Counted from the stretch's first letter, positions 7,098 through 23,882 are shown. The stretch is DNA of 30,959 bases from Candidatus Krumholzibacteriota bacterium (GCA_039714075.1 JBDLKA010000035.1:1-30959), one strand, 5' to 3'. Numbers and translations are program-made. Notes: generated by a model from the letters alone, not told the origin.

Positions 7098-7664
7098 ATG
7101 CAAGGCAAGGATCTTCCCGCTCGCTTCGACGCCGACCGCACCGCCCTGGTGGTGGTCGATATCCAGGAAAAATTCCGCGACCTGATCCACGGCATGGACC
7201 AGGTGGTGGCCGCATCTTCGCGCCTGATCCGTTTCTGCCAGCTGCTGGACATTCCCATCCTGGTGACCGAACACTACCCCCGCGGCCTGGGCGTGACCCT
7301 GGCCGACATCCGGCGCCTGTTCAAACCTTTCAATTGTGTCGAAAAAACAGATTTCAGCTGCTGCGGCAACAATGATTTCAATGAAGCGGTAGGAAATTTG
7401 AAGCGGGACCAGATCATCCTCTGCGGCATAGAAACCCACGTTTGCATCTACCAGACCGCTTTCGATCTGTTGCACCAGAACAAACAGGTGGCGGTGGCCG
7501 TGGACGCAGTCAGTTCCTGTTCCCCTGCCGATCGTGAAATCGGCCTCAAGCGCATGTCCGAATTGGGCGTCCAAAGCATGGGCGTGCAGATGCTGATGTT
7601 CGAAATCCTGAAAAAAGCGGGCACCGAGCAATTCAAGAAGGCCGCCCCACTTTTAAAGGAGTAG
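7098..7664 (+). CDS. Isochorismatase-family cysteine hydrolase
   Basis: TALVVVDIQE, TEHYP.GLG.T, EKTDFSC, GIETHVCIYQT, DAVSS; AAGGA RBS. Confidence 0.9.
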   Translation: MQGKDLPARFDADRTALVVVDIQEKFRDLIHGMDQVVAASSRLIRFCQLLDIPILVTEHYPRGLGVTLADIRRLFKPFNCVEKTDFSCCGNNDFNEAVGNLKRDQIILCGIETHVCIYQTAFDLLHQNKQVAVAVDAVSSCSPADREIGLKRMSELGVQSMGVQMLMFEILKKAGTEQFKKAAPLLKE

Positions 7665-7854
7665 GCCCTGGACTTCGGGCATAAATGGAACTAGACGGAC
7701 ATACCCAATAATACGGGCGTCATGGAGGGTCCCGCAGCCACGGACGGCGGAGGGCCCCGGAATGCGAGCGAGGCCGCCACACGATGTGGCGGCCCCGCGT
7801 CCCGAATTATTGGGTATGTCCGTCTAGTTCCATTTATACCCAAAGCCCAGAGCC
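7664..7854. repeat. Long palindromic element 1 (49-bp arms, MITE/REPIN-like), overlapping the 3' end of the DUF3078-like gene
   Basis: 7681-7712 is the exact reverse complement of 7806-7837 (32 bp). The arms extend to 7664/7854 with 4 mismatches. The spacer contains hairpins (GGCCGCCACA-cga-TGTGGCGGCC). Confidence 0.9.
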
Positions 7855-8870
7855 AGCGTCTGCTTGAACTGCCCGGACTTCCGAATGGCCTGCCGCACCG
7901 CCGCTTCATTGACCAGGGTGTTCGTCTCATCCACCACCGGACCGACCGTGTTGTCGTACTTGTCGTAGACCCATCGCAGGTACAGCTTGACCGAAATCAC
8001 CTTGGTGATGTTCGCAGTGAATGTATTCTCGAAGTCCACGTCCACGGTAGTTGTGTAACCGGCCAGATCATCGGGCAGCGGATTGGCCGGATCCGCAATG
8101 TTGAATCCGTCCTCGAAGGTACTCTTGCCGGAGAAGGCAAACGGCATGACGAAGGACAGCTTGGATTCCCAGTCCACCCGGCCGTCCAGGGCCCCTACCT
8201 TGTATTCGGTGATCCATTCCGCGCCGGCCTCGTTCGTGCTCTCGCTCTGGGTTTCGGTGGCGGGCGAGGGATTGAGGAAATACTTCCGGCTGTTCTGGAT
8301 GAAGGCCACGCCGACCCTGCTCATGAACTGGCGGTCTTCCTCGTCGATGAAGGTCCGGGAAATACCCGCGGATTCCTTGAAGGTCAAGGGATTGAAGCTC
8401 AACGAGCGCTGCTCGATATCGCTCAGATCCTCGAACATCGACTTGAAGTTGAAGGCGAAGTAGGGATTCCAGCCACTGTCGTAGGTCAGGCGGAACATCG
8501 ATTCGAAATCGATGAGATCGTCGGTCTTGTCGGGCCGTTTCCAGTACAGATCGCCGCCGGCGTCCCGTTCCTGGTTGTGGGTCTGGCCGTAAGCCAGTTT
8601 CAGGATGTTCCGCCAGTTGGTGCGTTCGGAAAACTGCTTCTCCAGGTTGGCGCTGAACTGGCCGTTCCAGACCACCGACCCCTTGTCCCCGCCGTTCCAG
8701 TTGTTGGTGTAGGAACTCTGCAGAATGTTCAGACTGACGTCGATTTCCTTCTGCCAAACGCCGATCTTGGATTCCTCCGCGGCCTCGTCCTGGGCCGCGG
8801 CCAGGCCGGCCAGGCCGGTAATCAGAGCCAGGGCGACCGCCACGGCCACCAATCGCTTCATTTCAAACAT
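7824..8870 (-). CDS. DUF3078-like outer-membrane beta-barrel protein
   Basis: AGGAGGAG RBS before the ATG at 8870; signal peptide ending AAA; Q..Y.NNW.GG, W.N.L.L.YG and K..D.I motifs; C-terminal alternating strand LALGFGYKWN. Confidence 0.75.
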   Translation of the reverse strand: MFEMKRLVAVAVALALITGLAGLAAAQDEAAEESKIGVWQKEIDVSLNILQSSYTNNWNGGDKGSVVWNGQFSANLEKQFSERTNWRNILKLAYGQTHNQERDAGGDLYWKRPDKTDDLIDFESMFRLTYDSGWNPYFAFNFKSMFEDLSDIEQRSLSFNPLTFKESAGISRTFIDEEDRQFMSRVGVAFIQNSRKYFLNPSPATETQSESTNEAGAEWITEYKVGALDGRVDWESKLSFVMPFAFSGKSTFEDGFNIADPANPLPDDLAGYTTTVDVDFENTFTANITKVISVKLYLRWVYDKYDNTVGPVVDETNTLVNEAAVRQAIRKSGQFKQTLALGFGYKWN

Positions 8871-8899
8871 GGACTTTCTCCTCCTGAGTTCTCCGTTGT

Positions 8900-9781
8900 T
8901 CAAGCTTCCGTCTTCTCCAGGTGCACGACCGTCTGCGGGAAGGGAATGTCGATGCCGGCGGCGTCGAAAGCTTCCTTCACGTTCTTGTGCATGTCCAGGT
9001 AGACTCCCCAGTAGTCGGCGGAATTCACCCAGGGCCGGAAAATGATGTTCACACTCGAATCGGCCAGTTCGCTCACCGCGATGGTCGTTTCGGGATCATC
9101 CAGGACCCGGCTGTCGTTCTTGGCCAGATCGGCGAGGATCTGCATGGCCCGGTTGTGGTCCGACCCGTAGCCGATGCCCATGACCATGTCCACACGGCGC
9201 GTATCGTACCCGTTGAAGTTCTTGATGGTGCCCCCGAAAACGGATCCGTTGGGCACGATGATCTTCACGTTGTCGGGCGTGCAGATGGTCGTCGAGAAGA
9301 TGGCGATCTCCACCACCTTGCCCTTGACCCCGGCGGCCTCGATGACATCGCCGGCCTTGAAGGGCCGGAACAGCAGCAGCATGACGCCCGAGGAGAAGTT
9401 GCCCAGGGTGCCCTGCAGGGCCATGCCGACGGCGAAACCGGCCGCACCGAGAATGGCCACGAAGCTGGCCGTCTGCACCCCGAACTTGCCGACAACCGCG
9501 ATCAGGGTGAACGCCATGATGGCGAAGTAGATGAGGCTGCCGACGAAGCCGGTCAGGCTGGGATCGACGCCCCGTTTGATCATGACCTTCTTGACGCTGT
9601 TGCGGATGGCGCCGGCGACGATGCGGCCGACAATCAGGATGGCCAGCGCCGTCAGGACCTGAATGGCGAAATCGGGTCCTTTTTCCGTCAACATGTTCAT
9701 CCACCTGGAAGGATCGGTCATCGATTCGGCGGCCGCTGCGGCCTCGGGACCGGCTTCGGCCTGACCCAGAAATGTCAACAT
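8900..9781 (-). CDS. mscS: Small-conductance mechanosensitive channel
   Basis: GAAGFAVGMALQGTLGNFSSG, RPFKAGD, IIVPNG, RRVD, LADSSVN, GIDIPFPQ. Confidence 0.95.
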   Translation of the reverse strand: MLTFLGQAEAGPEAAAAAESMTDPSRWMNMLTEKGPDFAIQVLTALAILIVGRIVAGAIRNSVKKVMIKRGVDPSLTGFVGSLIYFAIMAFTLIAVVGKFGVQTASFVAILGAAGFAVGMALQGTLGNFSSGVMLLLFRPFKAGDVIEAAGVKGKVVEIAIFSTTICTPDNVKIIVPNGSVFGGTIKNFNGYDTRRVDMVMGIGYGSDHNRAMQILADLAKNDSRVLDDPETTIAVSELADSSVNIIFRPWVNSADYWGVYLDMHKNVKEAFDAAGIDIPFPQTVVHLEKTEA

Positions 9782-9870
9782 TGGAATCCCCTTGGAAAGG
9801 TTTAAAAAAAATGTCCCGGTTCCCGGAAGAAAACCCCGGATCCACCAGGCAGGTCAAGTTTGAATAGGGA

Positions 9871-9898
9871 ATTCTAACTCCCAGGGGATACCGGTCAA
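9871..9898 (-). promoter_or_regulatory. Candidate sigma70 promoter for mscS and the DUF3078-like gene
   Basis: Minus strand reads TTGACC-N16-TAGAAT, about 90 bp upstream of the mscS start. Confidence 0.55.
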
Positions 9899-9955
9899 TT
9901 TAAATCTTGTTGAAAAATCTCCGATTATCCCTACAACCACATATGCCTACCTGAT

Positions 9956-11077
9956 TTATGGGATATCAAATATCACCACGTCGATGCGCCGGTTGAGAGC
10001 CCGACCTTCAGCCGTGCTGTTCAGGGCGATGGGCTTGTTCGGCCCGAAACCATCGGTGGCAATGCTCTCTTCGGCGCGACCGAGCTTCTGCTCCAGCAGG
10101 CGGGCCACCGATTCGGCACGGCGCCGCGACAGCCTCAGGTTGGCGTCATGGCCGCCGGTGTCGTCGGTATGACCTTCCACCCGGACCTGGCCCCCGGGGA
10201 ACATTTCGATGGCGGCAACGATCTTGTCCACCAAACCGTCCTGACCGGGGTTCAGGGAAGCGCTGCCCACACCGAAGGAAATGCCGTAGACCTGCATGAC
10301 GACTTCGCCCGCGCCGGTGACCAGTATTTCCCCCTCCTCGGCGGTGAGCGAGGAGCGGAGGGCGGTCACGGCTTCTTCACGTTTCTGCTTCTTTGTGAGC
10401 ACTGATTCGGCGGCGGAGCGATCGGCCTCGGCCACCCCCACGCGCAACTCGGACTCCCAAAGTTGGCGCCGCAGGGAGCTGACCTCGACTTCCAGGGCGG
10501 TGATCAGGGATTCCTGGGCGGCGGTCCGCCCCCCGACCGTTTCGCGGAACCGGCGGTTTTCCACCGTCAGGGAGTCGACCAGAACCTGCCGCTGGAGATT
10601 CGAATCATCAAGTTGATCGATGAGATCCCGGGCCAGATCCGTCCCGCTCAGCACGGGGTCCATGTCCACGCCGTAAAGGGTCCCGATTTCCGTCAGGGCC
10701 TGGTCGAACCGGCCCAGCAGCGCTTCCATGCCGCTTTTCCGGCTGCGCATGTCCTCGATGAAGGCGGCGGCGCCCACCAGACGCCGGCCATCGGTTCTGA
10801 GAGCCGCCCATTGTTCGGGTGAGGCCCCGTTCTTTTCGGCTGCGTCGAGACGGGAATCCAGGTCCCACCACGCGTGGGGCAATTGGCCCTTGGCCCCCAG
10901 TTTCTTGGCCTGTCGCATCAATTCACGGATTTCCGCCGCCGGGTCACCGGCACCCTCCTGGGCCAGCACGGGGGTACAGCCCAGCCCGCCGCCAAAGTGG
11001 GACGAACCGGACGGAACCACCGCCGCCAAAATCGAAAGGGCCAGAATCAAGACAGTCGCTTGAAGTTTCAAGATCAT
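9956..11077 (-). CDS. OmpA/MotB C-terminal domain protein with signal peptide and coiled coil
   Basis: F..GSA.L, VEGHTD..G...NLRLS.RRA.SV, G.G...P.A.N...GRA.NRRID; helical N-terminal half. Confidence 0.9.
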   Translation of the reverse strand: MILKLQATVLILALSILAAVVPSGSSHFGGGLGCTPVLAQEGAGDPAAEIRELMRQAKKLGAKGQLPHAWWDLDSRLDAAEKNGASPEQWAALRTDGRRLVGAAAFIEDMRSRKSGMEALLGRFDQALTEIGTLYGVDMDPVLSGTDLARDLIDQLDDSNLQRQVLVDSLTVENRRFRETVGGRTAAQESLITALEVEVSSLRRQLWESELRVGVAEADRSAAESVLTKKQKREEAVTALRSSLTAEEGEILVTGAGEVVMQVYGISFGVGSASLNPGQDGLVDKIVAAIEMFPGGQVRVEGHTDDTGGHDANLRLSRRRAESVARLLEQKLGRAEESIATDGFGPNKPIALNSTAEGRALNRRIDVVIFDIP

Positions 11078-12192
11078 TCCTCCAACCGGCTTCGGGAATC
11101 GGCCGGGGCCGCAACGGACCCAGCCGTCATCCCATCCTCGGTTTCTTTTCTGTGGACGACCTCCAGGGCCGTTTCCAACACCTGGTCATCAAAGATCCGG
11201 GTCATGCAATTGTAAAGGAGGCATTTTTCCTCCAGGCAGATCCGGCGGGCCGGGCAGGCCACATCCGGAACGAGCGCCCGGCTCAGCCGGCCCCGCGGGC
11301 CCCAGCGATCCGGGCTCATGGTCACCACCGGTGGGAACAAACCTACCGTCGCGCAACCCACCGCCGCGGCAATGTGCAACGGACCTGTCGAAGGACCGAT
11401 GAAAAGATCCCCCGCCGACAGGATGCCCAGGAACTCCCGCAGCGAGAACCTGTCCAGCAGAACATCGACCCCCTGGTTCAGATAGGTGGCCACAGCGGCA
11501 ACCGTGGCGCTGTCCGAGGCCGAGCCCGTGACAAAAACCCGCCACCCCGGGCGCCGGGCCAGGACGTTGGCAACCGCGGAAAAACGCGCGGGTTCCCAAT
11601 CCAGGGCCGATCCGCCGGAACCCGGATGGACAAAAACGACTTTTTCGGCCCCCTGAGCCTCTGTCCTGCGAAACTCCTGCCCGATTTCCTTCTGCCCCTC
11701 GGTCAGATGCAGGCGGGGTTCGGGGAAATCCCGGTTCTCCGAGCGGAACTGGTTCAGCCAACCGCCGGTCAGGCGGCGCGCCAAAGCCAGGTTGTGTTCC
11801 ATCTCGTGCCGCCGCCCACGGGAACGGGATTGCCACGAGCCCCGGTTCAGCAGGAACCAGCTCGAACCCTTGGAAAGGGGTCCGAACCGTTTCGAAATCC
11901 CCACCCTCTTCATCAGGCGGGCCAATTCCAACCGGTACTGGAGAATCACCACCGCGTCGAAGGCCTCCCGGCGCAGCCGGTCTTCCAGATCCGCCAGTTC
12001 CTGTTCGGTCTCATCCCCGGTCCAGGTCCAGACGGAATCGATGTGGGGATCGTTTTCCACCAGGGGCACCGATCCCGGCGCCACCATGGCCTGCACCTCC
12101 CAGTCGGGCCGCGCGGTCTTGATATCCTCGAAGACGGGCAGGGACAGGACCATGTCTCCCAGCCGGTCCGTTCTGACGATCAAAACCTTCAA
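11074..12192 (-). CDS. Glycosyltransferase family 9 (LPS heptosyltransferase-like)
   Basis: KVLIVRTDRLGDMVLSLP, HPGSGG...W and STGPLHIAAA motifs. The TTG start at 12192 overlaps the upstream TGA (TTGA); the ORF-finder extension to 12585 is spurious. Confidence 0.9.
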   Translation of the reverse strand: MKVLIVRTDRLGDMVLSLPVFEDIKTARPDWEVQAMVAPGSVPLVENDPHIDSVWTWTGDETEQELADLEDRLRREAFDAVVILQYRLELARLMKRVGISKRFGPLSKGSSWFLLNRGSWQSRSRGRRHEMEHNLALARRLTGGWLNQFRSENRDFPEPRLHLTEGQKEIGQEFRRTEAQGAEKVVFVHPGSGGSALDWEPARFSAVANVLARRPGWRVFVTGSASDSATVAAVATYLNQGVDVLLDRFSLREFLGILSAGDLFIGPSTGPLHIAAAVGCATVGLFPPVVTMSPDRWGPRGRLSRALVPDVACPARRICLEEKCLLYNCMTRIFDDQVLETALEVVHRKETEDGMTAGSVAAPADSRSRLEE

Positions 12193-12929
12193 CGGCGCCC
12201 CATCCGCCAAAGCTTGGTGTATTTGCTCAGGACGTAAAAACCGGAGGCCATGCACAGAACCGTACCGGGCAAACCGTCCAGGATGCCGCCCTTGAGCAGC
12301 CACATGCGCAGGAACGCCGCCTTGGCGCGAACCACGGCGCCGAACAGGCCGGCCCGGCGGCCCTGGGCATGCAGTTCCTCGGCGGCCAGGGTGGTGTACC
12401 GGTTCAACTTGTCGATGTACTGCTCCATGGTCTCGTAGGTGTAATGCAGCATCAGGCCGTCCAACCGGCCCACCGCACCGGTGGTCACCACCGCCTCGTG
12501 AACGGGTTTGTCGTTGAAACGCGCCCTTTCGCAGTCGAAAAGCCGGGTCACATATTCGGGATGCCAACCGCAATGCCTGATCCACTTGCCCAGAAACCGG
12601 CTCAACCGGTTGGCCATGAAGGCGGCCTCGTCCGGCTGGTCAGGTAGCGCTTCGATGGCGGCCTGCAACTCCGGTGTCACCTGCTCGTCCGAATCGATAC
12701 TCAGCACCCACCGGTTGCGGCACAGGTCGACCGCCTTCTGTTTGGTGGGCCCGAAACCAAGCCACTGTGTCTGGTGGAGAGCCGCGCCGTGCCGGGCGCA
12801 GACCTCGTCCGTGTTGTCGGAACTGCCCTGGTCCAACACGATGATCTCGTCCGCAAAGGCCACCGACTGCAGGCACCTGTCCAGGTCCGCCGCGGCGTTC
12901 AAGGTGATGATGGCCACTGAAATCTTCAC
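12189..12929 (-). CDS. Glycosyltransferase family 2 (KdtX/WaaE-like LPS core glucosyltransferase)
   Basis: ISVAIITLN, DEIIVLDQGSSDNT, W.GFG..K, WVLSIDSDE, VHE, K.NRYT, G.LDG..G. Confidence 0.9.
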   Translation of the reverse strand: MKISVAIITLNAAADLDRCLQSVAFADEIIVLDQGSSDNTDEVCARHGAALHQTQWLGFGPTKQKAVDLCRNRWVLSIDSDEQVTPELQAAIEALPDQPDEAAFMANRLSRFLGKWIRHCGWHPEYVTRLFDCERARFNDKPVHEAVVTTGAVGRLDGLMLHYTYETMEQYIDKLNRYTTLAAEELHAQGRRAGLFGAVVRAKAAFLRMWLLKGGILDGLPGTVLCMASGFYVLSKYTKLWRMGRR

Positions 12930-13966
12930 GCCGATTCCGCCTTTCGGGGCACGAGAATCACCTTGCCCACGTTCATCCGGTCCTCCAGGCGGCGGTGGGC
13001 GCGCCCGGCCTGGTCAAAGGGAACAACCGTGTCGATCACCGGGGCGATACGGCCGTCGCCCAGCATTTCCAGCAGTCGGGTCATCCAGTGCGAAGTGCGT
13101 GCCTGCTGATCCCACATCCGGCCCAGGTTCACCCCCGCGATGGACTTGTTGTCGTTCATCAACGTGACGGGATTCAACTGGAACCAGGGCACCCGGGCCA
13201 GGGTGCGCAACGCCGACAGGGTACCAGACCTTTTGCCGACCGCGGCACTGGAAAAACCGAACAGGACCAACCGGCCGCATTTGGCCAGGCTGCGATAACT
13301 CTCCATGATCCAGCGGCCGTGACGGGGCTCCAGGGCCACATCCACCCCCCGGCCGTCCGTGACGTCCCTTATTTCCTCCGCAAAATCCCGTCGGCTGGAA
13401 TCGAACACATGGATTAGCCCCTGCTCCTTCAGGTATTCGTGTTTCCCCGGCGACGCCGAACCGATGACCCGCGCCCCGGCCAGCCGGCACAACTGGATAA
13501 CCGCCTGGCCCACCCCGCCGGCGGCGGAATGGATCAGCACCAGGTCGCCCTCCGTAACCGGCGCCATGACCCTGACCATCTGCCAGGCGGTCAGGTAGTT
13601 GACCGGCACCGCCGCTGCGATTTCCGGCGTTACGGCGGCCGGTCTCTGCCAAACCAGTTCCCGGGGCAGGCAGACGAATTCACTGTAGCCCCCGAAATTG
13701 CACATCGCGACCACGGGAGCTCCGGCCAGGTCTTCCGGCACCCCGTCGCCCACCGCGTCAATCGTTCCGGCCACCTCGTAGCCGGCCACCGCCGGCAGGG
13801 CGGGCGCATCGGGATACAGTCCGCGCCGCATCATCACGTCCGCGAAATTGACCCCGGCCGCCTCCACGCGAATCCGCACCTGGCCCGCGGCGGGATCGGG
13901 TCGGGCGACCTCGCGGACCTCCATGACCCCGACTTCGCCTTTGCTGTTCATCCAGACCTGGAGCAT
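12926..13966 (-). CDS. Medium-chain dehydrogenase/reductase, VAT-1-like NADPH:quinone oxidoreductase
   Basis: GVNFAD..R.G.YP, GYE.AG, PVNYLTAW, HSAAGGVG, N.GKVIL. The ATG at 13966 follows an AAGGGG RBS. Confidence 0.9.
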   Translation of the reverse strand: MLQVWMNSKGEVGVMEVREVARPDPAAGQVRIRVEAAGVNFADVMMRRGLYPDAPALPAVAGYEVAGTIDAVGDGVPEDLAGAPVVAMCNFGGYSEFVCLPRELVWQRPAAVTPEIAAAVPVNYLTAWQMVRVMAPVTEGDLVLIHSAAGGVGQAVIQLCRLAGARVIGSASPGKHEYLKEQGLIHVFDSSRRDFAEEIRDVTDGRGVDVALEPRHGRWIMESYRSLAKCGRLVLFGFSSAAVGKRSGTLSALRTLARVPWFQLNPVTLMNDNKSIAGVNLGRMWDQQARTSHWMTRLLEMLGDGRIAPVIDTVVPFDQAGRAHRRLEDRMNVGKVILVPRKAESA

Positions 13967-13994
13967 GGTCGCATTTCCCCTTCCGGCGCCCCCG

Positions 13995-15803
13995 TCAATC
14001 GAAAGCGAATCCTCCGGGCTTGGTACCCGGCATTTCGATTTCGGGATAATCCACTCCGCCGATCTTGAACCCCAGGACAAACCCGCTTTCCTCCACGCTG
14101 TTCACGATACCGAAGCGCAGCTGGGTGGAAGGCAGAACCAGATCGGGGTTGTTGATCCGGAAACCCAGCCCGATGCTGGAATAGAATTTCTGCTGGACCA
14201 GGGGATCCTTTTCGCCCCCGATGGCTCCGACATCAGCATAGCCGAATACCATGAACCGGAACCCCATCAACGACCAGGGGGTGAACACCCGGGATTCAAG
14301 TTTCAGGATCACCCGCTGATTGCCTTTCACCTTGTTGTCGTCCAGACCGCGCAATCCCGTCTTGTTGCCCAGCAGGAGCGCGCGGTCCCAATTCCGGTTG
14401 AAGGCCAGGGTGTAGGTCAGAACGGAATAGAGACGATGATTGAATCGCTCCCCCCCCATCAGGCGCGTGATATAGACCCCGGCCAGGTTCAGGGACCCGT
14501 CCTCGACCACGTAGTCGTGGAAATATCCCCCCAGGTCGACCGCCCCCATGAAGATGTCGCCCTTGTTGCGCACCGACAGATAGGCCATCTGGAAAAAGGA
14601 ACTGGTGCGGTCGAAGAATTCGCGATCCTGATAGCCCCCGGACAGCTTGACGGTAAAGCCCGCGGGTAGATCCTCGGTTTCCCCCATCTTGAACAGGTAG
14701 CTTGTCTTGTAGTACTTCAACCTCTGATAGGTCACTCCGGCCAGATAATCCCTGGTATTGAGGAAGGCGGAATTCGTGTCCGCCGTGGCATGGGGACGCA
14801 CCCGGTAATCCTTCTTCCGGAACCTCGCCGCCGGAACCAGCATGGGACGGGCCGATTGTCCGGACGCCCGGACCCTGCTCAAGGCGACGGCGTGGCCGAC
14901 CCAATAGTCGCCCAGTTCGAATTTTTCCGGAACGCCCGCGTTGTCCCGAACATCGGTGTACTCCCACTGGCCCCCGCCCACCCACTTGATCCCCGGGTGA
15001 ACCAGGGTGCGCGTGAGTTCGGCCTGCCGGGACAGCTCCTGCCAGGAGTCTTCGAAATGGAGCCTGACATCGATGAAGGAGCCCCGCAGATTCCGTTTCC
15101 TCAGCCGCCCCTGGTAACCCAGATTGGGTTTCATGTCTCCCCGGTAGATCGCCTTGTTGTCCAGCCGGACCCCATAGCCGCCGATATTGGAAAAATAGAG
15201 ATTCGCCTCGTAGCGATCGACATCCTTGATGTTGCCCGTGACGCCGAAAGGCCACTTGTCCCTGGTTTCGACCACCACCGCGACCGTGTTGTCCCCTCCC
15301 ATCACCGGGGCCACGAGGATCCGCACATCGTTGATGAAATCCAACTCGCGCAGCATGCGTTCGGTATCGGCCAGCAGGAAGGGATCGACGGCCTGCCCGC
15401 GTTCGAAAAGGAGGTATTCCCTAATCAGGCGGTCCTTGGTGTAGGACTGGAAGGGTTTGGTCACGATGTTCAGGAGTTGCTGGCTGGTTCCCTGGTTCGA
15501 GTCCCAGTAGGGATCGAACCGTTCGACCTGATGGACCAGGACGACTTCGATGGTCTTGCCGATATAGGGGGCGTAACGGCTGACCACCTCGACCGCGCGG
15601 CCGTCCAGTTCATCACCCTGCTGGCTGGAACCTCCGAAATACCTTTTCAGAAGCTTGGTCAACCAGGAGCCGTCCTCCTGGTCGCTGTCCTGGGCCGTGA
15701 CCAGGGAATCGGGGCCGGCCGCGGTGGATTGGGCAACAGCACCTGTCACGTCCGTGATCCCGGACAGGCACAGGAAAAGCAAGCCGATGACCGCGGCCCG
15801 CAC
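13995..15803 (-). CDS. Omp85/BamA-TamA superfamily outer-membrane protein with a POTRA-like domain
   Basis: Signal peptide; 'T...LIREYLLF..G..D...L..TER.LR.L.F' POTRA-like segment; LRG loop; F...D.G and S.GLG.R strands. Confidence 0.7.
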   Translation of the reverse strand: MRAAVIGLLFLCLSGITDVTGAVAQSTAAGPDSLVTAQDSDQEDGSWLTKLLKRYFGGSSQQGDELDGRAVEVVSRYAPYIGKTIEVVLVHQVERFDPYWDSNQGTSQQLLNIVTKPFQSYTKDRLIREYLLFERGQAVDPFLLADTERMLRELDFINDVRILVAPVMGGDNTVAVVVETRDKWPFGVTGNIKDVDRYEANLYFSNIGGYGVRLDNKAIYRGDMKPNLGYQGRLRKRNLRGSFIDVRLHFEDSWQELSRQAELTRTLVHPGIKWVGGGQWEYTDVRDNAGVPEKFELGDYWVGHAVALSRVRASGQSARPMLVPAARFRKKDYRVRPHATADTNSAFLNTRDYLAGVTYQRLKYYKTSYLFKMGETEDLPAGFTVKLSGGYQDREFFDRTSSFFQMAYLSVRNKGDIFMGAVDLGGYFHDYVVEDGSLNLAGVYITRLMGGERFNHRLYSVLTYTLAFNRNWDRALLLGNKTGLRGLDDNKVKGNQRVILKLESRVFTPWSLMGFRFMVFGYADVGAIGGEKDPLVQQKFYSSIGLGFRINNPDLVLPSTQLRFGIVNSVEESGFVLGFKIGGVDYPEIEMPGTKPGGFAFD

Positions 15804-15806
15804 GTC

Positions 15807-16292
15807 TTACCTTCCGCAGCAGCGTTTGAACTTCTTGCCGCTGCCGCAAAGACAAGGGTCGTTGCGGCCCGTCTTGGGCTCTTCGCGCACCACGGGTTTC
15901 TTGGTCCCGGGCCGGCCCTCGGTAAACTTCCAGTCACCCTCCTCACGGCGGAATTCCGCCACCTCGTGATACTGCTTGTCCTCGCCGCCGTAGGTGTAAC
16001 TGGCCACGAACTCGACGGTGCCCGTTTCATCCTCGGGACCGCCGGATTCCGTGGCGAGGATTTCCAGACCGTGCCACTGGCTGTTCTCGGCCCAGTCGCG
16101 GGCGCCTTCAGCGTCCTCGTCCTTGCGGAAGTCCGGGTGGACCGACTGTTGGAGGAAGTCCATCTCCACCCGGGAATAGGCGGTGTAACGGGCGCGCATC
16201 AGTTCTTCGGCGGTGGCCGCGGCCCGTTCACCCTTGATGACCGGACCGCAGCAGTCGCCGAAATCCAGTTTAGTTCCACACGGACATTTCAT
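15807..16292 (-). CDS. ychJ: YchJ family protein with SEC-C metal-binding motifs
   Basis: N-terminal CPCG...[20 protein letters not shown]-terminal [18 protein letters not shown]. Alternative start at 16304. Confidence 0.9.
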
Positions 16293-16311
16293 TTCCCGCT
16301 CCATCGAGAGA

Positions 16312-16361
16312 GGGCCGCCGGATCCTGGATGACCATTTCTGGAGGTCCAGAGCGGCGGCCC
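16312..16361. repeat. Imperfect hairpin between the OPT gene and ychJ
   Basis: GGGCCGCCG (16312-16320) pairs with CGGCGGCCC (16353-16361), with an inner CTGGA/TCCAG pair. Confidence 0.5.
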
Positions 16362-16388
16362 GGTTATTTCCTTCTGTGCCTCGGACCG

Positions 16389-18443
16389 CTAGTCGGACGC
16401 GGCGCTGCGGGCTCCCTTGTAAAGGTAGAAGCACACACCGCAGAAGAGCACCAGCGCCAGCAGGGCCGACAGGGAATTCTCCTCGACCCAGTCGTGCATG
16501 TTCAGCGCGTGGACCACCGACCAGCCCTCGGCGTTGATCACGGTGCCGTCATGCAGGGTGCGCGTCCAGTCGTCGCTGACGAGCATCTTGCCGAAAAACA
16601 GCACCAGGGCCGCCACGACCCCCATGATGGCGCCGCCGGCCACGAAACCGGAAGCCATCAGGGTTCCCTTTTCCTTGCGCTTGCGCTGCACGTCGTCGCT
16701 GCCGCCCTTGGCCACGAAATACGACACGATGCCGCCGGCCAGGATGGGCGTGTTCAGATGCAGGGGCAGGTACATGCCCAGAGCGAAAGCCAGGGGCGGG
16801 ACACCGACCCATTCCAGCACCAGGGCCATGAAACATCCGCCCAGATACAACAGCCAGGGCGCCGGCGAACCGGTCATCAGCGGCTCGATCACCGCGGCCA
16901 TGGCGCTGGCCTGGGGCGCTTCCAACGGGTTGGGTTTGGTCGCCGTGGCTTCGCCGAAGCCGTAGGTGTCGTTCAACAGCATGATCACGCCCGCGACCGC
17001 GGCCGCGGAAAACAGGGTGCCCAGGAACTTCCACTGCTGCTGGACCCGGGGCGTCGTGCCCAGCCAGTAGCCGATCTTCAGATCGCTGATGAACCCCCCG
17101 CTCATGGAAAGCGCGGTGCAGACCACGCCGCCGATCAACAATGCGGCCACGATGCCGCCGTTATCCTTCAAGCCCACCCAGTTGAGGATCACCGAGCTGA
17201 TGATCAGGGTCATCAGCGTCATGCCCGAAACCGGGTTGGTGCCGACGATGGCGATGGCCCGCGCGGCCACCGTGGTGAACAGGAACGCGATCACCGTGAC
17301 GATCAGCAGCCCCGCGACGGCCCAGGCCAGCTTGTGCGTGACGCCGAACCAGAAGAACACGAAGACCAGGGCCAACGCCAGGACCGTCAGCGCGGAGATC
17401 CACTTCATGGGGATGTCCTTCTGCGTCCTCTCGACCGGTCCTGTTTCCGTTTTCTGACCGCCACCCATCTCGTTGGCCGCCAGCTTGAAGGCGCCCCAGA
17501 TGATGCTGCGCGACTTGAAGACCCCGATCATGCCGGCCATGGCGATGGCGCCGATGCCCACGGGCCGGACGTAGTTGAAGAAGAGGTCGCCCGGGACCAT
17601 CGCCTGCAGTTCGGCGATCTGGAATTCATTGCCGAAGAACCCGACCATCGGCACCAGAACCCACCAGGCCAGGAACGAGCCCGAGGCGATGATCAGGGCG
17701 TAGCGCAATCCGACGATGTAACCGAGGCCGATCACCGCGGCGTCCGTCAGCAGACGGAATTCCAGGCGCGGCCCGGCGGCCATACGTTCACCCCAGGCAA
17801 AGACCCGGGTGGTGAACAGTTCGCGCCAGAACCCGAAGGAACCGGACAGGAAGTTGTAGACACCGCCCAGGGCCGCGGCCTTGAGCAGGGTCGAAGCGGC
17901 GCCGCCGCCCTTTTCCCCGGCCATCAGCACCTCGGTCGAGGCGGTGGCTTCAGGAAAAGGAAACTCGCCGTGCATGTCCTTGACGAAATACCGGCGGAAG
18001 GGAATCAGGAACAGGATACCCAGCAGACCGCCCAGCAACGAAGCCATGAAGATGCGGAAAAATCCCGCCTGATCCTCCAGCCCCAGGATGTACAGCCCCG
18101 GAACGGTAAAGATGGCGCCGGCGACAATGACTCCGGAAGCCGAACCGATCGACTGGATGATGACGTTTTCCTGCAGGGCATCCTTGCGTCCCAGAGCGCT
18201 GCTCAACCCCATGGCCAAAATGGTGATGGGGATGGCCGCTTCGAAGACCTGGCCGATCTTCAGCCCCAGATAGGCGCTGGCCCCGGTAAACAGAACGGCA
18301 TAAAAAAGGCCCCAGAACAGGGAATATCCGGTCAGTTCGGGGACTATTTTCTCGGCCGGGATAACCGGCACATAGGATTCACCCTCGTTCAACCGCCGAT
18401 ATGCATTATCGGGAAGGCTTTTGGGGTTTCCGCTGACTTCCAT
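16389..18443 (-). CDS. OPT family oligopeptide transporter
   Basis: AYLGLKIG, ENVIIQ, FPE.TA..EVL, NPVSGMT, DLK.GYWLG.TP, APQA..MA; many TM helices; GGAGG RBS before the ATG at 18443. Confidence 0.95.
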   Translation of the reverse strand: MEVSGNPKSLPDNAYRRLNEGESYVPVIPAEKIVPELTGYSLFWGLFYAVLFTGASAYLGLKIGQVFEAAIPITILAMGLSSALGRKDALQENVIIQSIGSASGVIVAGAIFTVPGLYILGLEDQAGFFRIFMASLLGGLLGILFLIPFRRYFVKDMHGEFPFPEATASTEVLMAGEKGGGAASTLLKAAALGGVYNFLSGSFGFWRELFTTRVFAWGERMAAGPRLEFRLLTDAAVIGLGYIVGLRYALIIASGSFLAWWVLVPMVGFFGNEFQIAELQAMVPGDLFFNYVRPVGIGAIAMAGMIGVFKSRSIIWGAFKLAANEMGGGQKTETGPVERTQKDIPMKWISALTVLALALVFVFFWFGVTHKLAWAVAGLLIVTVIAFLFTTVAARAIAIVGTNPVSGMTLMTLIISSVILNWVGLKDNGGIVAALLIGGVVCTALSMSGGFISDLKIGYWLGTTPRVQQQWKFLGTLFSAAAVAGVIMLLNDTYGFGEATATKPNPLEAPQASAMAAVIEPLMTGSPAPWLLYLGGCFMALVLEWVGVPPLAFALGMYLPLHLNTPILAGGIVSYFVAKGGSDDVQRKRKEKGTLMASGFVAGGAIMGVVAALVLFFGKMLVSDDWTRTLHDGTVINAEGWSVVHALNMHDWVEENSLSALLALVLFCGVCFYLYKGARSAASD

Positions 18444-18709
18444 GGGCACCTCCGGACAGGGGGGCAGATAGGGACGATCGTCCCGGGACCGCGGCCGGCC
18501 GCGCGGAAGGTCCAAAGGATGGTCCCATGCGGCCGACATCGCCGGTAAACCTAACATTCCCCTAACTTTCAGACAAGCAAAGTGTCAAGCCCATCCTTGC
18601 CTCGCCACGCCCTCAGGTCATATCTTTGACTTTCGCAATTCAACCCTTGGGAACCGGCCTGTCGGGCCAGGATCCCGCAGCGCCCTGTTTTTCCGCCGGA
18701 GGCCTTTCC

Positions 18710-19969
18710 ATGCTGGACAGAAAAGCCGATTCCACGTTTCCGACCCTGATCGATCGCTTCGTCACCTACGCCAAGATCCACACCACCAGCAGCGAGGAGT
18801 CGGACACCTACCCCTCCACCGAGCGGCAGTTCGACCTGGCCCGCCTGCTGGTGGACGAGTTGAAGGCCGTCGGCCTGGCCGACGCCTCGGTGGACGACAA
18901 CTGCTACGTGACGGCCAATCTCCCGGCCAGCGCCGGCTTCGAGAACGTGCCGGCGATCGCTTTTATTTCCCACATGGACACGTACCCCGAAGTGAGCGGC
19001 GAAAACGTGGTGCCCACCTTCCACGAAAACTACCAGGGCGGCGACATCGACCTGCCCAACGAAGGGCGCAAGATCCTGGCGGCCGAAAACCCGTATCTGG
19101 CCAAGTGCCTCGGCGAGACCATCATCACCGCCGACGGGACCACCCTGCTGGGTGCCGACGACAAGGCCGGCATCGCCGAGATCATGGAGGCGCTGACCCT
19201 TATCCACGAGAACCCCGAATGGAAACACGGCCCGGTGAAGATCGCCTTCACCCCCGACGAGGAAGTCGGCCAGGGCGTCAAGCATTTCGATGTCGAGGGC
19301 TTCGGCGCGACGGTGGCCTACACCATGGACGGCGGCCAGCGCGGCGAAGTGGAGAACGAGACCTTCTGCGCCGACAGCGCCATCGTGACCTTCGTCGGCC
19401 GCGACATCCATCCCGGCTACGCCAAGGACAAGATGGTTCCCTCGGTCAAGGTGGCCGGTGAATTCGTCGCCAGCCTGCCCCGGGAAGGCGCCCCCGAAAC
19501 CACCGAGGGTATGGAGGGCTACATCCATCCCATCAGCATCAAGGGCAACACCAGCGAGACCGAGGTCCACCTGCTGATCCGGGATTTCGCCCAGGAGGGC
19601 CTGCGCCCCAAGGCCGAGATGATCGACAAGTACGCCGCCGCGGCCTGCGAGAAGTGGCCCAATTCCAGCTACAAGATCGAGATCAAGGAATACTACCGGA
19701 ACATGAAGTACGATCTGGAGAAGGAACCCCGCGCCATGGCCTACGCCCTGGAAGCGGTCAAGCGGGCGGGCATGGAGCCCCTCCAGGGTTCGATCCGGGG
19801 CGGCACCGACGGATCCACCCTGTCGGCCAAGGGCCTGCCGACGCCGAACATCTTCACCGGTGAACAGGATTTCCACGGTTACGGCGAGTGGGTCTGTGTC
19901 AAGGACATGGTGCTTGCCACGGAAACTATTCTGAAAATTATCGAGGTCTGGACGGAGAAAGAGAGCTAG
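18710..19969 (+). CDS. pepT: Peptidase T (M20B tripeptide aminopeptidase)
   Basis: HMDT, TLLGADDKAG, FTPDEE.G, T.DG, HPGYAK, IRGGTDG, P.PN.F.G...H; GGAGG RBS before the ATG at 18710. Confidence 0.95.
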   Translation: MLDRKADSTFPTLIDRFVTYAKIHTTSSEESDTYPSTERQFDLARLLVDELKAVGLADASVDDNCYVTANLPASAGFENVPAIAFISHMDTYPEVSGENVVPTFHENYQGGDIDLPNEGRKILAAENPYLAKCLGETIITADGTTLLGADDKAGIAEIMEALTLIHENPEWKHGPVKIAFTPDEEVGQGVKHFDVEGFGATVAYTMDGGQRGEVENETFCADSAIVTFVGRDIHPGYAKDKMVPSVKVAGEFVASLPREGAPETTEGMEGYIHPISIKGNTSETEVHLLIRDFAQEGLRPKAEMIDKYAAAACEKWPNSSYKIEIKEYYRNMKYDLEKEPRAMAYALEAVKRAGMEPLQGSIRGGTDGSTLSAKGLPTPNIFTGEQDFHGYGEWVCVKDMVLATETILKIIEVWTEKES

Positions 19970-20120
19970 AGAGCCTTTACAGGCCATACGCACAGGGCCC
20001 GGAAATAATCCGCAGCGCCGAAGGCGTGAGGACATTTTCCGGGCCCTGTGCGTATGGCCTGTAAAGGCTTCCTGGCTCTCCTTCCCCGTTCACCCCGGAT
20101 TTCTCAGAATAATTTTCGTG
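19918..20120. repeat. Long palindromic element 2 (MITE/REPIN-like), overlapping the 3' end of pepT
   Basis: 19972-20005 is the exact reverse complement of 20036-20069 (34 bp). Degenerate pairing continues outward to 19918/20120. The loop contains CGCC-GAA-GGCG. Confidence 0.9.
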
Positions 20121-20122
20121 TC

Positions 20123-20161
20123 TTGCGGGTATGATCTCAAAGTGATATCATACTGACATCT
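20123..20161 (+). promoter_or_regulatory. sigma70 promoter overlapped by three phased TGATATCA-like boxes (probable Arc/RHH operator)
   Basis: TTGCGG-N17-TATCAT with extended TGn; TGATCTCA (20132), TGATATCA (20143) and TGACATCT (20154) at an 11-bp period. Confidence 0.65.
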
Positions 20162-21914: not shown

Positions 21915-23303
21915 TCAGTCTTCGGGTTCGAGCCCGTATTCCTTGATCTTGCGCCACAGCGTGGTCCGGTCGATTCCCAGTCTTCGCGCCGCTTTGGATC
22001 GATTCCAGCCGGTGCCGCGCAAGGCATCCCGCAGCAGGTTCTTTTCCTGGTCGCTGTGCACCGGAACGTCGTTCAACCCTTGGGCGCGGCGGCTCCCGGA
22101 GCGGAAAAGTTCGGGTGGCAGATGGCTGCCGCCGATGATCTCCCCCCGGCTCAGGACCAGGGCGTGTTCGAGGGAATTCTCCAGCTCCCGCACGTTGCCC
22201 GGCCAGTGGTGGTTCATCAGCAGCCGCAGGGCCTCGCCGGACACCGCAGGCGGTCCGGGCTGCCCCTCACGCCGGGCGATCTTGGCCAGCAGATGGGTGA
22301 TCAGCAGGGGAATATCCTCCCGCCGGTCGCGCAGCGGGGGAATGGCCAGGGACACCACCTTGATGCGGTAGAAGAAATCCTCGCGCATCCGGCCGGTGGC
22401 CAGGAGGGTTTCCAGATCGCGGTTGGTCGCCGACACCACCCTGACGTCCACGGGGATGGGCCGGTTGTCCCCCACCCGTTCGATAACCCGTTCCTGGAGC
22501 ACGCGCAGCAGTTTGACCTGGATCACGGGGCTCACATCACCGATCTCGTCCAGGAAAATCGTGCCGCCGGCCGCCTCCTGGAAGCGACCCACGCGGTCAC
22601 CCACCGCACCGGTGTACGCCCCCTTGACGTGGCCGAAGAGCTCACTTTCCAAAAGGTTTTCCGACAGGGCCGAACAGTTGACCTGGACAAAGGGACCGTC
22701 GGCCCGGCTGCTGGCCTCGTGCACGGCGCGGGCCACCAGTTCCTTGCCCGTGCCGCTTTCTCCGGTGATCAAAACCGTCGCCTCGCTGCCGGCAACGCTG
22801 GAGACCAGGTCGAACAGTTCGCGCATCTTCGGATCCCGCCCCACCAGGTTGCCCAGGCGGTGGCGGGGGCTCATCTGCTGGCGCAGGGTGGTCACCTCGG
22901 TCACGTCCCCCAGAATCAGGGCGATGCCCAGGGAAACCCCCTGCTGGTCGAGCAGGGGAGAGGTTCGCAACAGGACGTGGCCGCGCCGGCCGTCGGCCAG
23001 TTGCACCGTGGTCTGGAAATCGATGATGGCCTCCCCCGAACGCAGGGTTTCCTGCAGGACATCCTCCGGGCAGGACTTGTTTCCGAACAGATCACAGACC
23101 AGGACCCCCGCCAACTCCCGCGCGCTACGGCCCAGGATTTCCTCCGCGGCAGGGTTCATGGTCAGGATGCGCAGGTCTGCATCCAGGGCGATGATCCCCT
23201 CCCGCAGCGACCTGATAATAGAAAGCAGGCTGGTGGGCTTGATCTGGGCCAGCAGGCTTTCAATGGATAGCAAGGCGCCCTTCTCCGGTTTTTTCGCGAC
23301 CAT
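21915..23303 (-). CDS. PAS-domain sigma-54-dependent transcriptional activator (bEBP, Fis-type HTH)
   Basis: PAS (EGIIALD...NPAAEEILG), Walker [57 protein letters not shown]. Confidence 0.95.
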
Positions 23304-23325
23304 GGCCTCATTTCCCCGCTGAAGT

Positions 23326-23363
23326 GTTGAAAGCAACGATTATGTTGCAACATTTTAGTTGCA
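23326..23363. promoter_or_regulatory. Putative upstream activator sequences: overlapping GCAAC-N6-GTTGC palindromes
   Basis: GCAAC-gattat-GTTGC (23333-23348) and TGCAAC-atttta-GTTGCA (23346-23363), roughly 110-135 bp upstream of the -24 element. Confidence 0.6.
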
Positions 23364-23469
23364 AACCACACCGGGCGCAAGTGGAGTTGCGACCAGCCCA
23401 ACCGGAGCGAATAACTTAACTTGCTGAAAACCATGACCTTAATAAACTCCAAAGGGGGTTTCCTTTTAA

Positions 23470-23485: not shown

Positions 23486-23558
23486 ATAGGGTTGTCCAAG
23501 CGAGAAGTGATTCAAGTTGGTGTTGCAGCCAACGGTTGTAATAACGGAGGAGAGTCCC

Positions 23559-23882
23559 ATGGCGAACGTGATGGAATTCAACGGCGATAATTTCGAGGCC
23601 GAGGTCGTAAACAGCGATGTCCCCGTTCTGGTGGATTTTTGGGCCCCCTGGTGCGGTCCCTGCAAGATGATCGGCCCCATCGTCGAGGAACTGGCCGGCG
23701 AGTTCGACGGCAAGGTGAAGATCGGTAAGGTCAACGTGGACAACAATCAGGACCTGGCCGCGAAATTCGGCATCCGCGGCATTCCCACGGTCATGCTCTT
23801 CAAGGGCGGCGAATCCATCAACAGTTTCGTCGGTCTGCGCCCCAAGGAAGATCTGGCCGCGGCCCTCAACGCCGCGTTGTAA
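23559..23882 (+). CDS. trxA: Thioredoxin
   Basis: VLVDFWAPWCGPCK, cis-Pro motif GIPT; GGAGGAG RBS before the ATG at 23559. Confidence 0.97.
   Translation: MANVMEFNGDNFEAEVVNSDVPVLVDFWAPWCGPCKMIGPIVEELAGEFDGKVKIGKVNVDNNQDLAAKFGIRGIPTVMLFKGGESINSFVGLRPKEDLAAALNAAL

Follow-up and report, generated by a model that had tools for sequence, protein, structure and literature searches.

Two palindromes beside gene ends

The DNA studied here, called the window, is the whole of contig C35 (30,959 nucleotides, nt) from the genome of a Candidatus Krumholzibacteriota bacterium, hereafter G000 (4.06 Mb in 260 contigs, 62% GC). It contains two long palindromes, elements 1 and 2, which adjoin the 3' ends of protein-coding genes and belong to larger families of hairpins, each with a conserved apex on stems that differ from locus to locus. 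These stems mirror the neighbouring gene ends, and we propose that they are probably renewed by copying of DNA from one arm to the other. The two elements and their adjoining genes, from the open reading frame (ORF) list and the inverted-repeat catalogue, are the following (stem lengths in base pairs, bp):

7098..7664, plus strand: isochorismatase-family gene (ORF list; Pfam PF00857, E 9.5e-33), stop TAG at 7662-7664
7664..7680, no strand: element 1 left outer arm, in which the last DUF3078 codons recur inverted and decayed, GGCCCTGGACTTCGGGC against GGCTCTGGGCTTTGGGT
7681..7712, no strand: element 1 perfect left stem, 32 bp (catalogue entry C35 7681-7837, loop 93 nt)
7713..7805, plus strand: element 1 apex, family A, 93 nt, a weak TwoAYGGAY match
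7806..7837, no strand: element 1 perfect right stem, 32 bp (catalogue and sequence)
7824..8903, minus strand: DUF3078 gene (ORF list; Pfam PF11276, E 2.8e-11), its 3' end being the putative donor arm of element 1
18626..19969, plus strand: M20-family peptidase gene (ORF list; Pfam PF01546 and PF07687), stop TAG at 19967-19969
19972..20005, no strand: element 2 perfect left stem, 34 bp (catalogue), starting 2 nt after the stop
20006..20035, plus strand: element 2 apex, family B, 30 nt, TAATCCGCAG-CGCC-GAA-GGCG-TGAGGACAT
20036..20069, no strand: element 2 perfect right stem, 34 bp (catalogue)
20070..20120, no strand: element 2 right outer arm, which repeats the last ~50 nt of the peptidase gene in inverted, decayed form and with small indels

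Element 1 sits between two convergent genes, the isochorismatase-family and DUF3078 genes, and its arms (7664-7717 and 7801-7854) are 91% complementary. The left outer arm begins at the last base of the isochorismatase-family gene, and the DUF3078 stop, a TAG on the minus strand (7824-7826), lies inside a CTAG at 7824-7827. The right stem holds this stop together with the last three codons and part of the fourth (..KWN*), and further DUF3078 codons recur, inverted and decayed, in the 17 bp that lie outward of the left stem. The apex contains CAUGGAGG, a hairpin with an ACGGAC loop, CCGGAAUGC and a second hairpin, GGCCGCCACACGAUGUGGCGGCC, and aligns to a paralogue on contig C131 at 88% over 89 nt. 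Folded as RNA, element 1 reaches -127.4 kcal/mol (z -12.9), and none of 200 shuffles folds as well.

The arms of element 2 lie at 19949-20014 and 20027-20092, within a self-reverse match that covers 19918-20120 at 79% (E 3.6e-39). The peptidase stop is inside a CTAG (19966-19969), the last ~50 nt of the gene form the putative donor outer arm, and the right outer arm covers the stop as well, reading CTGG where the gene has CTAG. An SPFH/Band 7 gene follows downstream on the same strand as the peptidase gene. The RNA fold is -117.7 kcal/mol (z -17.7; 0 of 200 shuffles fold as well), and only generic microRNA-precursor models of Rfam matched element 2, reflecting its hairpin shape. An earlier note on this DNA had listed five features for the pair, all of which are present in the window: a start at a TAG within CTAG, a perfect inner stem of 32-34 bp (32 bp in element 1 and 34 bp in element 2), a CCGCAG..GAGG loop core, outer arms that mirror the gene end and decay outward, and a length of about 190-200 bp.

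The catalogue of G000 (perfect stems, seed 12, loops of at most 160 nt, stems of at least 18 bp kept) holds 57 perfect inverted repeats, against 0, 0 and 0 in three second-order Markov shuffles, whose longest stems were 14-16 bp. Both palindromes of the window are real and far above chance. Comparisons were made with a genus sample of eight genomes (G000 and seven others, from uncultured marine bacteria) and a class-level sample of 41 genomes, namely those eight and 33 outside the genus, the latter comprising 17 other genera of the family and 16 genomes from other families; the relatives' genomes were covered in part. A metagenome set of 80 loci, read of 88 stretches reported, gave 87 elements in 67 locus clusters from other assemblies.

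In a metagenome-assembled genome (MAG) as fragmented as G000, the palindromes might be suspected to be products of chance or of assembly, for example adapter remnants or chimeric inverted joins, and several relatives' contigs do end at or inside elements. However, none of these repeats is expected by chance, the same loci recur in species-specific versions in eight separately assembled genomes and in the 80 metagenome loci, the apex hairpins covary, and the flanks run on into different genes on each side. We give this explanation a negligible weight and consider it already refuted by the cross-genome conservation. Word depth was even in every bin for stretch X1 (contigs of four DNA runs), and no listed piece bridged either palindrome. 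Among the contigs that stop at or inside palindromes (for example locus L031, contig C182 of G003), one ends in a long poly-G run; the palindromes appear to break short-read assemblies.

Families of hairpins with conserved apexes

Fifty of the 57 repeats were assigned to five conserved-loop families, 44 by pattern and 6 (in families A, B and C) by eye or Rfam. The copies found by pattern in G000 are:

Family A: apex ~85 nt, ..CGTCATGGAGG..GCCAYGGAYGGCGGAG..CCGGAATGC..hairpin; 6 copies
Family B: apex TAATCCGCAG-[small hairpin]-GAGGACAT; 27 copies
Family C: apex TTAG-[..]-ATGC; 6 copies
Family D: apex GGCGAATC..GCGCTGAGC; 2 copies
Family E: apex ~115 nt; 3 copies

We assign a single architecture to families A-E, that of a conserved apex on a locus-specific stem. 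The apex (20-95 nt) changes far less than the stems, the inner 7-12 bp of the basal stem are common to the family (in family B, ..ATCCGGG beside TAAT), and the other 20-50 bp are private to each locus, no pair of G000 copies sharing arms past ~12 bp. The shared and undescribed architecture that had been suspected from the two window elements thus extends to at least five families in G000, and the genome-wide catalogue shows mirrored coding flanks to be general. In family E (C26:1360-1521, C32:33236-33395 and C16:48866-49017) the arms are conserved between copies, unlike in the other families, and begin at the host stop codon with TAGGT(T/C)GTGCCT...; the family-E element may itself supply the stop codon of its host.

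The apex of element 1 was compared with Rfam model RF01731 (TwoAYGGAY) and scored 36.1 bits (E 2e-4), below the gathering cut-off of 43; at the gathering threshold the window had no match in Rfam. Seven family-A copies in G000 score 36.1-47.2 bits, a part of which is owed to the generic long stem, and two pass the cut-off (C131, 47.2 bits; C12, 43.3 bits), the others being C67 (41.4), C10 (41), C50 (37.4), C6 (36.2) and the window copy. The loop of the first hairpin, ACGGAC, is ATGGAT in paralogues; that of the second is CACACGAUGUG, or ACAGGAUGU in C131 and in G004, with GGA in some copies only.

No Rfam family matched family B. Among its 68 distinct copies the constancy of CCGCAG and GAGGAC is by construction, because both were included in the search pattern; the flanking TAAT (88-100%) and AT (87-99%), neither of them in the pattern, are also conserved. 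The inner hairpin covaries (CGCC/GGCG, GGCC/GGCC, CCCC/GGGG, GGGC/GCCC and longer forms), and its loops are mostly GAA or GCA on the apex strand. A UNCG tetraloop on the reverse strand was considered and ruled out, the loops being triloops. Beside the apex the arm follows the consensus ATCCGGG, which is 50-68% conserved over the 68 copies and fades outward. In this sense, the CCGCAG..GAGG core noted at first for both window palindromes is literally there in each, but it typifies family B. In G000, CCGCAG is carried by only 2 of 8 family-A copies, the others having CCGGAG, CGGGAG, TCGGAG or CCGTAG, so the identity between the two families is partly coincidence; a common descent of the two apexes is not supported.

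With a strict pattern, family B has 23 copies in G000 and 11-19 in each of the seven other genus genomes. Outside the genus there are 1-4 copies in three of the 17 other genera of the family (0 for the reversed control) and none in the 16 genomes of other families. Family A, by RF01731, occurs in 6 of 8 genus genomes and family C, by a 15-mer, in 5 of 8, both with 0 of 33 outside. Within the 41 genomes searched, the families are essentially confined to one genus. The looser pattern AATCCGCAGN{3,33}GAGGAC was discarded as a cross-genome probe, as it gave chance matches in unrelated phyla, and RF01731 was not found in five unrelated genomes reached through those matches. Viral contigs yielded a single apex match, armless and inside coding-like sequence, which is a chance match.

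Gene ends, stop codons and strand

Over 52 elements, pairing is 100% to 20 bp from the loop, 0.65 at 40-45 bp and at background by ~60-65 bp, with perfect stems of 20-46 bp; the mismatches of the decay zone are mostly transitions, by reading of the per-element strings. At 60 adjacent gene ends the perfect stem begins a median of 6.5 nt past the stop (range -25 to +39 nt), and at 45 of them the palindrome in its extended form carries on to the stop or into coding sequence. Both the mirroring of the host 3' end with outward decay and, from the distance at which pairing fades, the total length of ~190-200 bp are therefore general. The flanking genes converge on the element in 25 of 48 cases, an arrangement found in 538 of 2786 gene pairs across the genome (p = 4e-7); 2 of the 48 are in divergent gaps.

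Host genes end in TAG more often than expected, at 32 of 60 ends in G000 against 891 of 3040 (29%) genome-wide (p = 1e-4) and at 48 of 70 in the metagenome set; the TAG share is at most 36% in every gene class tested. The context of these stops is not enriched, either for CTAG (6 of 32 TAG hosts against 251 of 891 genome-wide) or for GTAG (17 of 32 against 40%, p = 0.15). The perfect 37-bp stem of the family-A copy on contig C50 includes the last ~12 nt of the transfer-messenger RNA (tmRNA), ..CGCCTCCACCA, and since one host is thus a tmRNA 3' end, stop codons as such are not required. Of the proposed stop-codon targeting at CTAG, a TAG bias is seen, and both window hosts end in TAG within CTAG, but CTAG targeting as such is not supported. 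The tmRNA gene (RF00023, 70.6 bits; 5' end outside the stretch) lies directly before the element in G000:C50:1850-2125.

The elements differ from intrinsic terminators, defined by a GC-rich hairpin and a U-tract. Viewed in gene orientation, 20 single-host elements of families B and C all lack a T-run after the distal arm, and stems of 20-46 bp are far longer than usual.

The strand of the family-B apex is antisense to a single adjacent host gene in 16 of 18 G000 cases (p = 0.0013), and the metagenome set has the same polarity in 34 locus clusters against 3. Because polarity follows the host gene in ~90% of cases, the apex is strand-specific; element 2, in the minority orientation, is one of the two G000 exceptions. 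A replication-strand cause was rejected: the sign of the GC skew agrees in 20 of 27 cases, but opposite polarities on one contig track gene direction. Doublets of a minus followed by a plus apex are frequent, and fit convergent gene pairs with one element per gene, as appears to be the case on C115 and C126. Host genes have a codon score of 0.32 against a genome median of 0.27 (p = 2e-5); the gene set includes weak ORFs, so no conclusion on expression is drawn from it.

Evolution in place

On the evidence of sequence comparison, the elements prove to be old and vertically inherited at fixed sites beside gene 3' ends. Their arms are seen to diverge quickly between species yet to stay Watson-Crick complementary near the apex in each; the apex can invert in place, and the non-genic arm tracks each species' own gene sequence. 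Within the genus, 34 of 39 family-B elements adjoin a family-B element at the matching G000 locus. The peptidase locus carries a family-B element in six species (G000, G007, G006, G001, G005 and G003), whose arms all differ, indels included, yet are self-complementary in each; the apex is conserved and is inverted in four of the six. Two clades with distinct peptidase gene ends (..GAGAGCTAG and ..GAACGTTGA) have correspondingly distinct mirrors. The element-1 locus is also occupied in G001, G004, G005 and G002, with the apex flipped in G005 and G002, and an AAC to GAC change in the last DUF3078 codon of G001 appears in its mirror arm as well.

Alignment confirmed apex flips at the C17 and C7 loci. 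At the C17 locus G001 has a stem without mismatch over 60 bp, in which its own version of the last 8 codons is repeated, whereas the G000 mirror of these codons is decayed; the mirror must therefore have been copied afresh from the gene since the two species diverged. Coding sequence is mirrored over as much as 24 nt and more. A matrix of gene-side against mirror identity across species was noisy, with windows out of register, and direct alignments were used instead. In G019, from another genus, two paralogues 4.3 kb apart share the apex and 30-bp arms; their single arm difference is mirrored on the opposite arm, and each has a private mirrored outer flank. That the palindrome extends by copying its neighbours, as first put forward for the window, is well supported by the 8-codon mirror of G001, the mirrored AAC to GAC change, the tmRNA end and these private flanks.

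Some observations suggest exchange between loci or some mobility. G005 has four copies with an identical 41-nt apex on unrelated arms, and one apex variant in G005 occupies loci whose G000 orthologues carry other variants, which hints that apex variants may be exchanged between loci. The only clear absence in G000 is at C70; since at least four further species of the genus have apex matches next to the orthologue, this looks like a loss in G000.

In this sense, the elements could instead be non-autonomous and still mobilised in trans, for example by a single-strand transposase of the HUH or RAYT (REP-associated tyrosine transposase) type that would target (C)TAG stops and then mirror the flank. 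The multiple copies of each family, the TAG bias in G000 and in the metagenome set, and the G019 paralogues and G005 apexes just described are all in agreement with this, as is the strict polarity, which strand-specific insertion beside TAG would give. The apex-strand loops are mostly GAA or GCA, types that form stable DNA mini-hairpins, and Y1_Tnp genes exist in G000. Nevertheless, 34 of the 39 within-genus copies are at orthologous sites, the sole clear presence/absence case looks like a loss, the distance from stop to apex varies widely, neither CTAG nor GTAG is enriched, one host is a tmRNA, and the lone match on a viral contig is an armless chance match. Y1_Tnp (PF01797) was found in 2 of the 8 genus genomes (76-93% complete) and in none near an apex, the G000 copies being on contigs C247 and C256 without the apex motif. 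Present mobilisation in trans, with the G000 arms shared over at most ~12 bp, is thus not borne out, nor is an HUH partner, both being part of the original proposal, and we regard this explanation as unlikely. C247 (1316 nt) and C256 (1081 nt) carry Y1_Tnp-like ORFs at 66% GC against 62% for the genome, and C256 is bounded by a terminal inverted repeat of ~27 nt; they may represent a separate insertion sequence (IS) or RAYT-like element, or contamination.

Two other palindromic features of the window were observed. The motif TATGATCTCAAAGTGATATCATA (20130-20152), upstream of the SPFH/Band 7 gene, has dyad symmetry and is almost invariant in five orthologous loci with a readable downstream region, where the surrounding intergenic DNA differs; the G001 locus diverges at this region. 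The motif is likely a promoter or operator. At 23324-23371 there is an imperfect overlapping palindrome, GTGTTGAAAGCAACGATTATGTTGCAA / TTGCAACATTTTAGTTGCAAACCACAC (74%), with repeated TTGCAA(C) words, in the divergent promoter gap between a minus-strand gene (21915-23336) and a plus-strand gene (23517-23882); it is unrelated to hairpin families A-E.

Proposed copying between arms

We propose that the hairpin arms are kept identical, and the palindrome made to grow outward, by repeated DNA-level copying from arm to arm at fixed old loci, a reading to which we give a probability of roughly 0.55. It is suggested by the fast divergence of arms that stay Watson-Crick perfect near the apex, together with graded outward decay, mirrored single differences, recopied coding flanks and flipped apexes; these arm patterns are hard to reconcile with stepwise compensatory substitution. 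The candidate processes are intramolecular template switching during replication (quasi-palindrome correction), which would be the most likely form, and gene conversion between arms. Perfect hairpins can be both produced and preserved by template switching (PMC8794818), which can also lengthen the identity between the arms of a quasi-palindrome (PMC3820800; PMC7202029). Copying would begin at the apex and run for variable lengths, giving the gradient from perfect to decayed pairing; selection on the neighbouring gene would let that gene serve as donor, with the intergenic side as recipient, and recombination between arms would flip the apex. As the family-wide consensus fades next to the apex, the ancestral spreading unit was probably the apex with a short stem, ~50 nt, the remaining stem having grown locally. 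The apex itself would most likely be a gene-end signal, with transcription, transcripts or a single DNA strand as its target.

The competing possibility is that of ordinary structured RNAs or 3' untranslated region (UTR) elements, with stems kept by RNA-level selection through stepwise compensation and an apex that binds a protein such as CsrA. Family A does match RF01731, two of seven G000 copies at the gathering score; the apex is oriented by its host gene, covariation is seen in the small apex hairpins, and the elements are placed after genes, with few of them in divergent promoter gaps. There is also a csrA gene, which GGA-containing family-A loops would suit, and binding of AYGGAY loops by Csr/Rsm proteins has been proposed for TwoAYGGAY in a preprint (10.64898/2026.09.22.753630). 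On the other hand, under stepwise compensation fast-evolving arms would not be expected to keep strict Watson-Crick pairing beside the apex, apexes remain flipped at orthologous loci, mirrors cover as much as 24 nt or more of coding sequence and are recopied, and the 20 family B and C hairpins viewed lack a U-tract. Additionally, there is a wobble excess on the strand opposite to the host messenger RNA (mRNA). Mismatches within the inner 30 bp, read on the apex strand, are G.T rather than A.C by 19:3, 12:6 and 10:3 in three partly related sets (41:12 in sum), a bias at odds with a simple mRNA 3'-UTR hairpin. It would fit a hairpin on the apex DNA strand, an antisense transcript or a repair bias on the other strand equally. 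We consider it improbable that RNA-level selection of this kind accounts for the elements.

Several points weigh against arm-to-arm copying as well. Strong selection for pairing with rapid turnover could mimic part of the pattern, copying being deduced from sequence. The G.T-biased strand is antisense to the host mRNA in ~90% of cases, which the copying model does not predict, and the TAG enrichment is left unexplained by it. In the metagenome set, 19 of 78 copies have exactly one mismatch within the inner 30 bp, so homogenisation is not instantaneous, and the same apex variant at several loci of one lineage suggests exchange between loci or some mobility. Furthermore, gene positions, stops and neighbour statistics come from our own crude codon-model gene caller, which weakens the gene-based counts; all genomes are incomplete MAGs; and orthologous copies and related populations make for non-independent counts that inflate the totals.

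As to what might permit long palindromes in this lineage, SbcD (TIGR00619) exceeded the curated cut-off in 0 of 41 class-sample genomes, whereas 8 of 14 control genomes passed it; XseA is present. The absence of SbcD may be permissive, but its loss as a factor specific to the genus was discarded, because SbcD was undetected in all 41 genomes and does not distinguish the genus.

More tentatively, and at somewhat less than even odds, a lineage-specific process may still be operating in this genus, in which a ~50-nt hairpin seed next to a gene end enlarges by copying adjacent DNA, coding 3' ends and the tmRNA end among it, holds its arms identical, flips its apex and swaps apex variants between loci. 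Its tie to TAG genes and to one DNA strand would then stem from its acting where transcription or translation ends.

If this were true, the hairpins would constitute an undescribed class of self-mirroring genetic element. The families provide a natural record, over many loci and species, of long perfect hairpins arising, growing and staying perfect, and the origin and upkeep of hairpins is an open question in the template-switching literature. Copying into coding 3' ends can shape protein C-termini and stop codons, and the strict strand polarity, together with the preference for TAG, is suggestive of a gene-end signal that has so far escaped notice, in a bacterial lineage of which little is known.

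Comparison with known systems

Like repetitive extragenic palindromic (REP) sequences and REPINs, the present families are extragenic palindromes of short length and several copies, which are enriched downstream of genes and in convergent gaps and occur as inverted doublets. Nevertheless, REPs have conserved arms and variable loops, the reverse of the pattern seen here, and the REP/REPIN-RAYT system differs as well, given that our arms are private past 7-12 bp, GTAG is not enriched and there is no consistent Y1/RAYT gene. Di Nocera et al. reportedly described GTAG-tagged palindromic repeats in 2013. Unlike in miniature inverted-repeat transposable elements (MITEs), only the 7-12 bp beside the apex are shared, and the flanks are duplicated inverted and not direct, no systematic search for direct duplications having been made. 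A conserved apex on private, self-renewing stems is thus the inverse of the usual REP and MITE logic. Palindrome-associated transposable elements (PATEs) of the IS200/IS605 type differ too, the elements described here having one central apex, no conserved ends and a stop-to-stem distance of -25 to +39 nt.

A private palindrome right after each coding region is also the substance of the 'hairpin rule' of Mimiviridae (PMC4402537). There, the palindrome marks the transcript end, with involvement of an RNase III-like enzyme and polyadenylation (PMC4402537). That system belongs to a giant virus and, in the accessible portion of the report, is described without a conserved apex, whereas families A-E are known from DNA sequence, which bears no sign of transcript processing.

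Closest to the mechanism proposed here is quasi-palindrome template switching, in which a single event turns one arm into the exact complement of its partner, lengthens their identity outward and yields apparent compensatory changes (PMC8794818; PMC5453318; PMC3820800; PMC7202029). In the available portions of these sources it is described as sporadic, at single loci (ribosomal RNA, microRNA genes and reporter genes), and not as a standing behaviour of multi-copy bacterial gene-end repeats with conserved apexes. Our literature search, which did not extend to the supplements of the TwoAYGGAY preprint, possibly relevant to stem variability, found no earlier account of mobile hairpins with a conserved loop and a variable stem.

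TwoAYGGAY (RF01731; PMC2864571) is a long basal stem with AYGGAY-type hairpin loops, recently extended in Pseudomonas; its function is given as unknown and its authors suspect a mobile-like expansion (10.64898/2026.09.22.753630). As in our families, it has several copies per genome, often as oppositely oriented doublets a few hundred bp apart, and family A scores 36-47 bits against its model. However, the window copy stays below the gathering score, the second loop of family A is ACA(C/G)GAUGU and not AYGGAY, and the outer sequence is conserved between copies in two Psychromonas rows of the 2010 seed alignment, as most positions are reported to be in Pseudomonas (10.64898/2026.09.22.753630). 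Neither private stems that mirror gene ends nor apex flipping are mentioned in the text available of either source (PMC2864571; 10.64898/2026.09.22.753630). The comparison calls for caution in the discovery of RNA motifs, as paired changes in long basal stems need not mean selection on an RNA fold. If copying of the kind proposed here is at work, the basal-stem covariation of repeat-like motifs such as TwoAYGGAY could be produced by copying of DNA and not by RNA-level selection.

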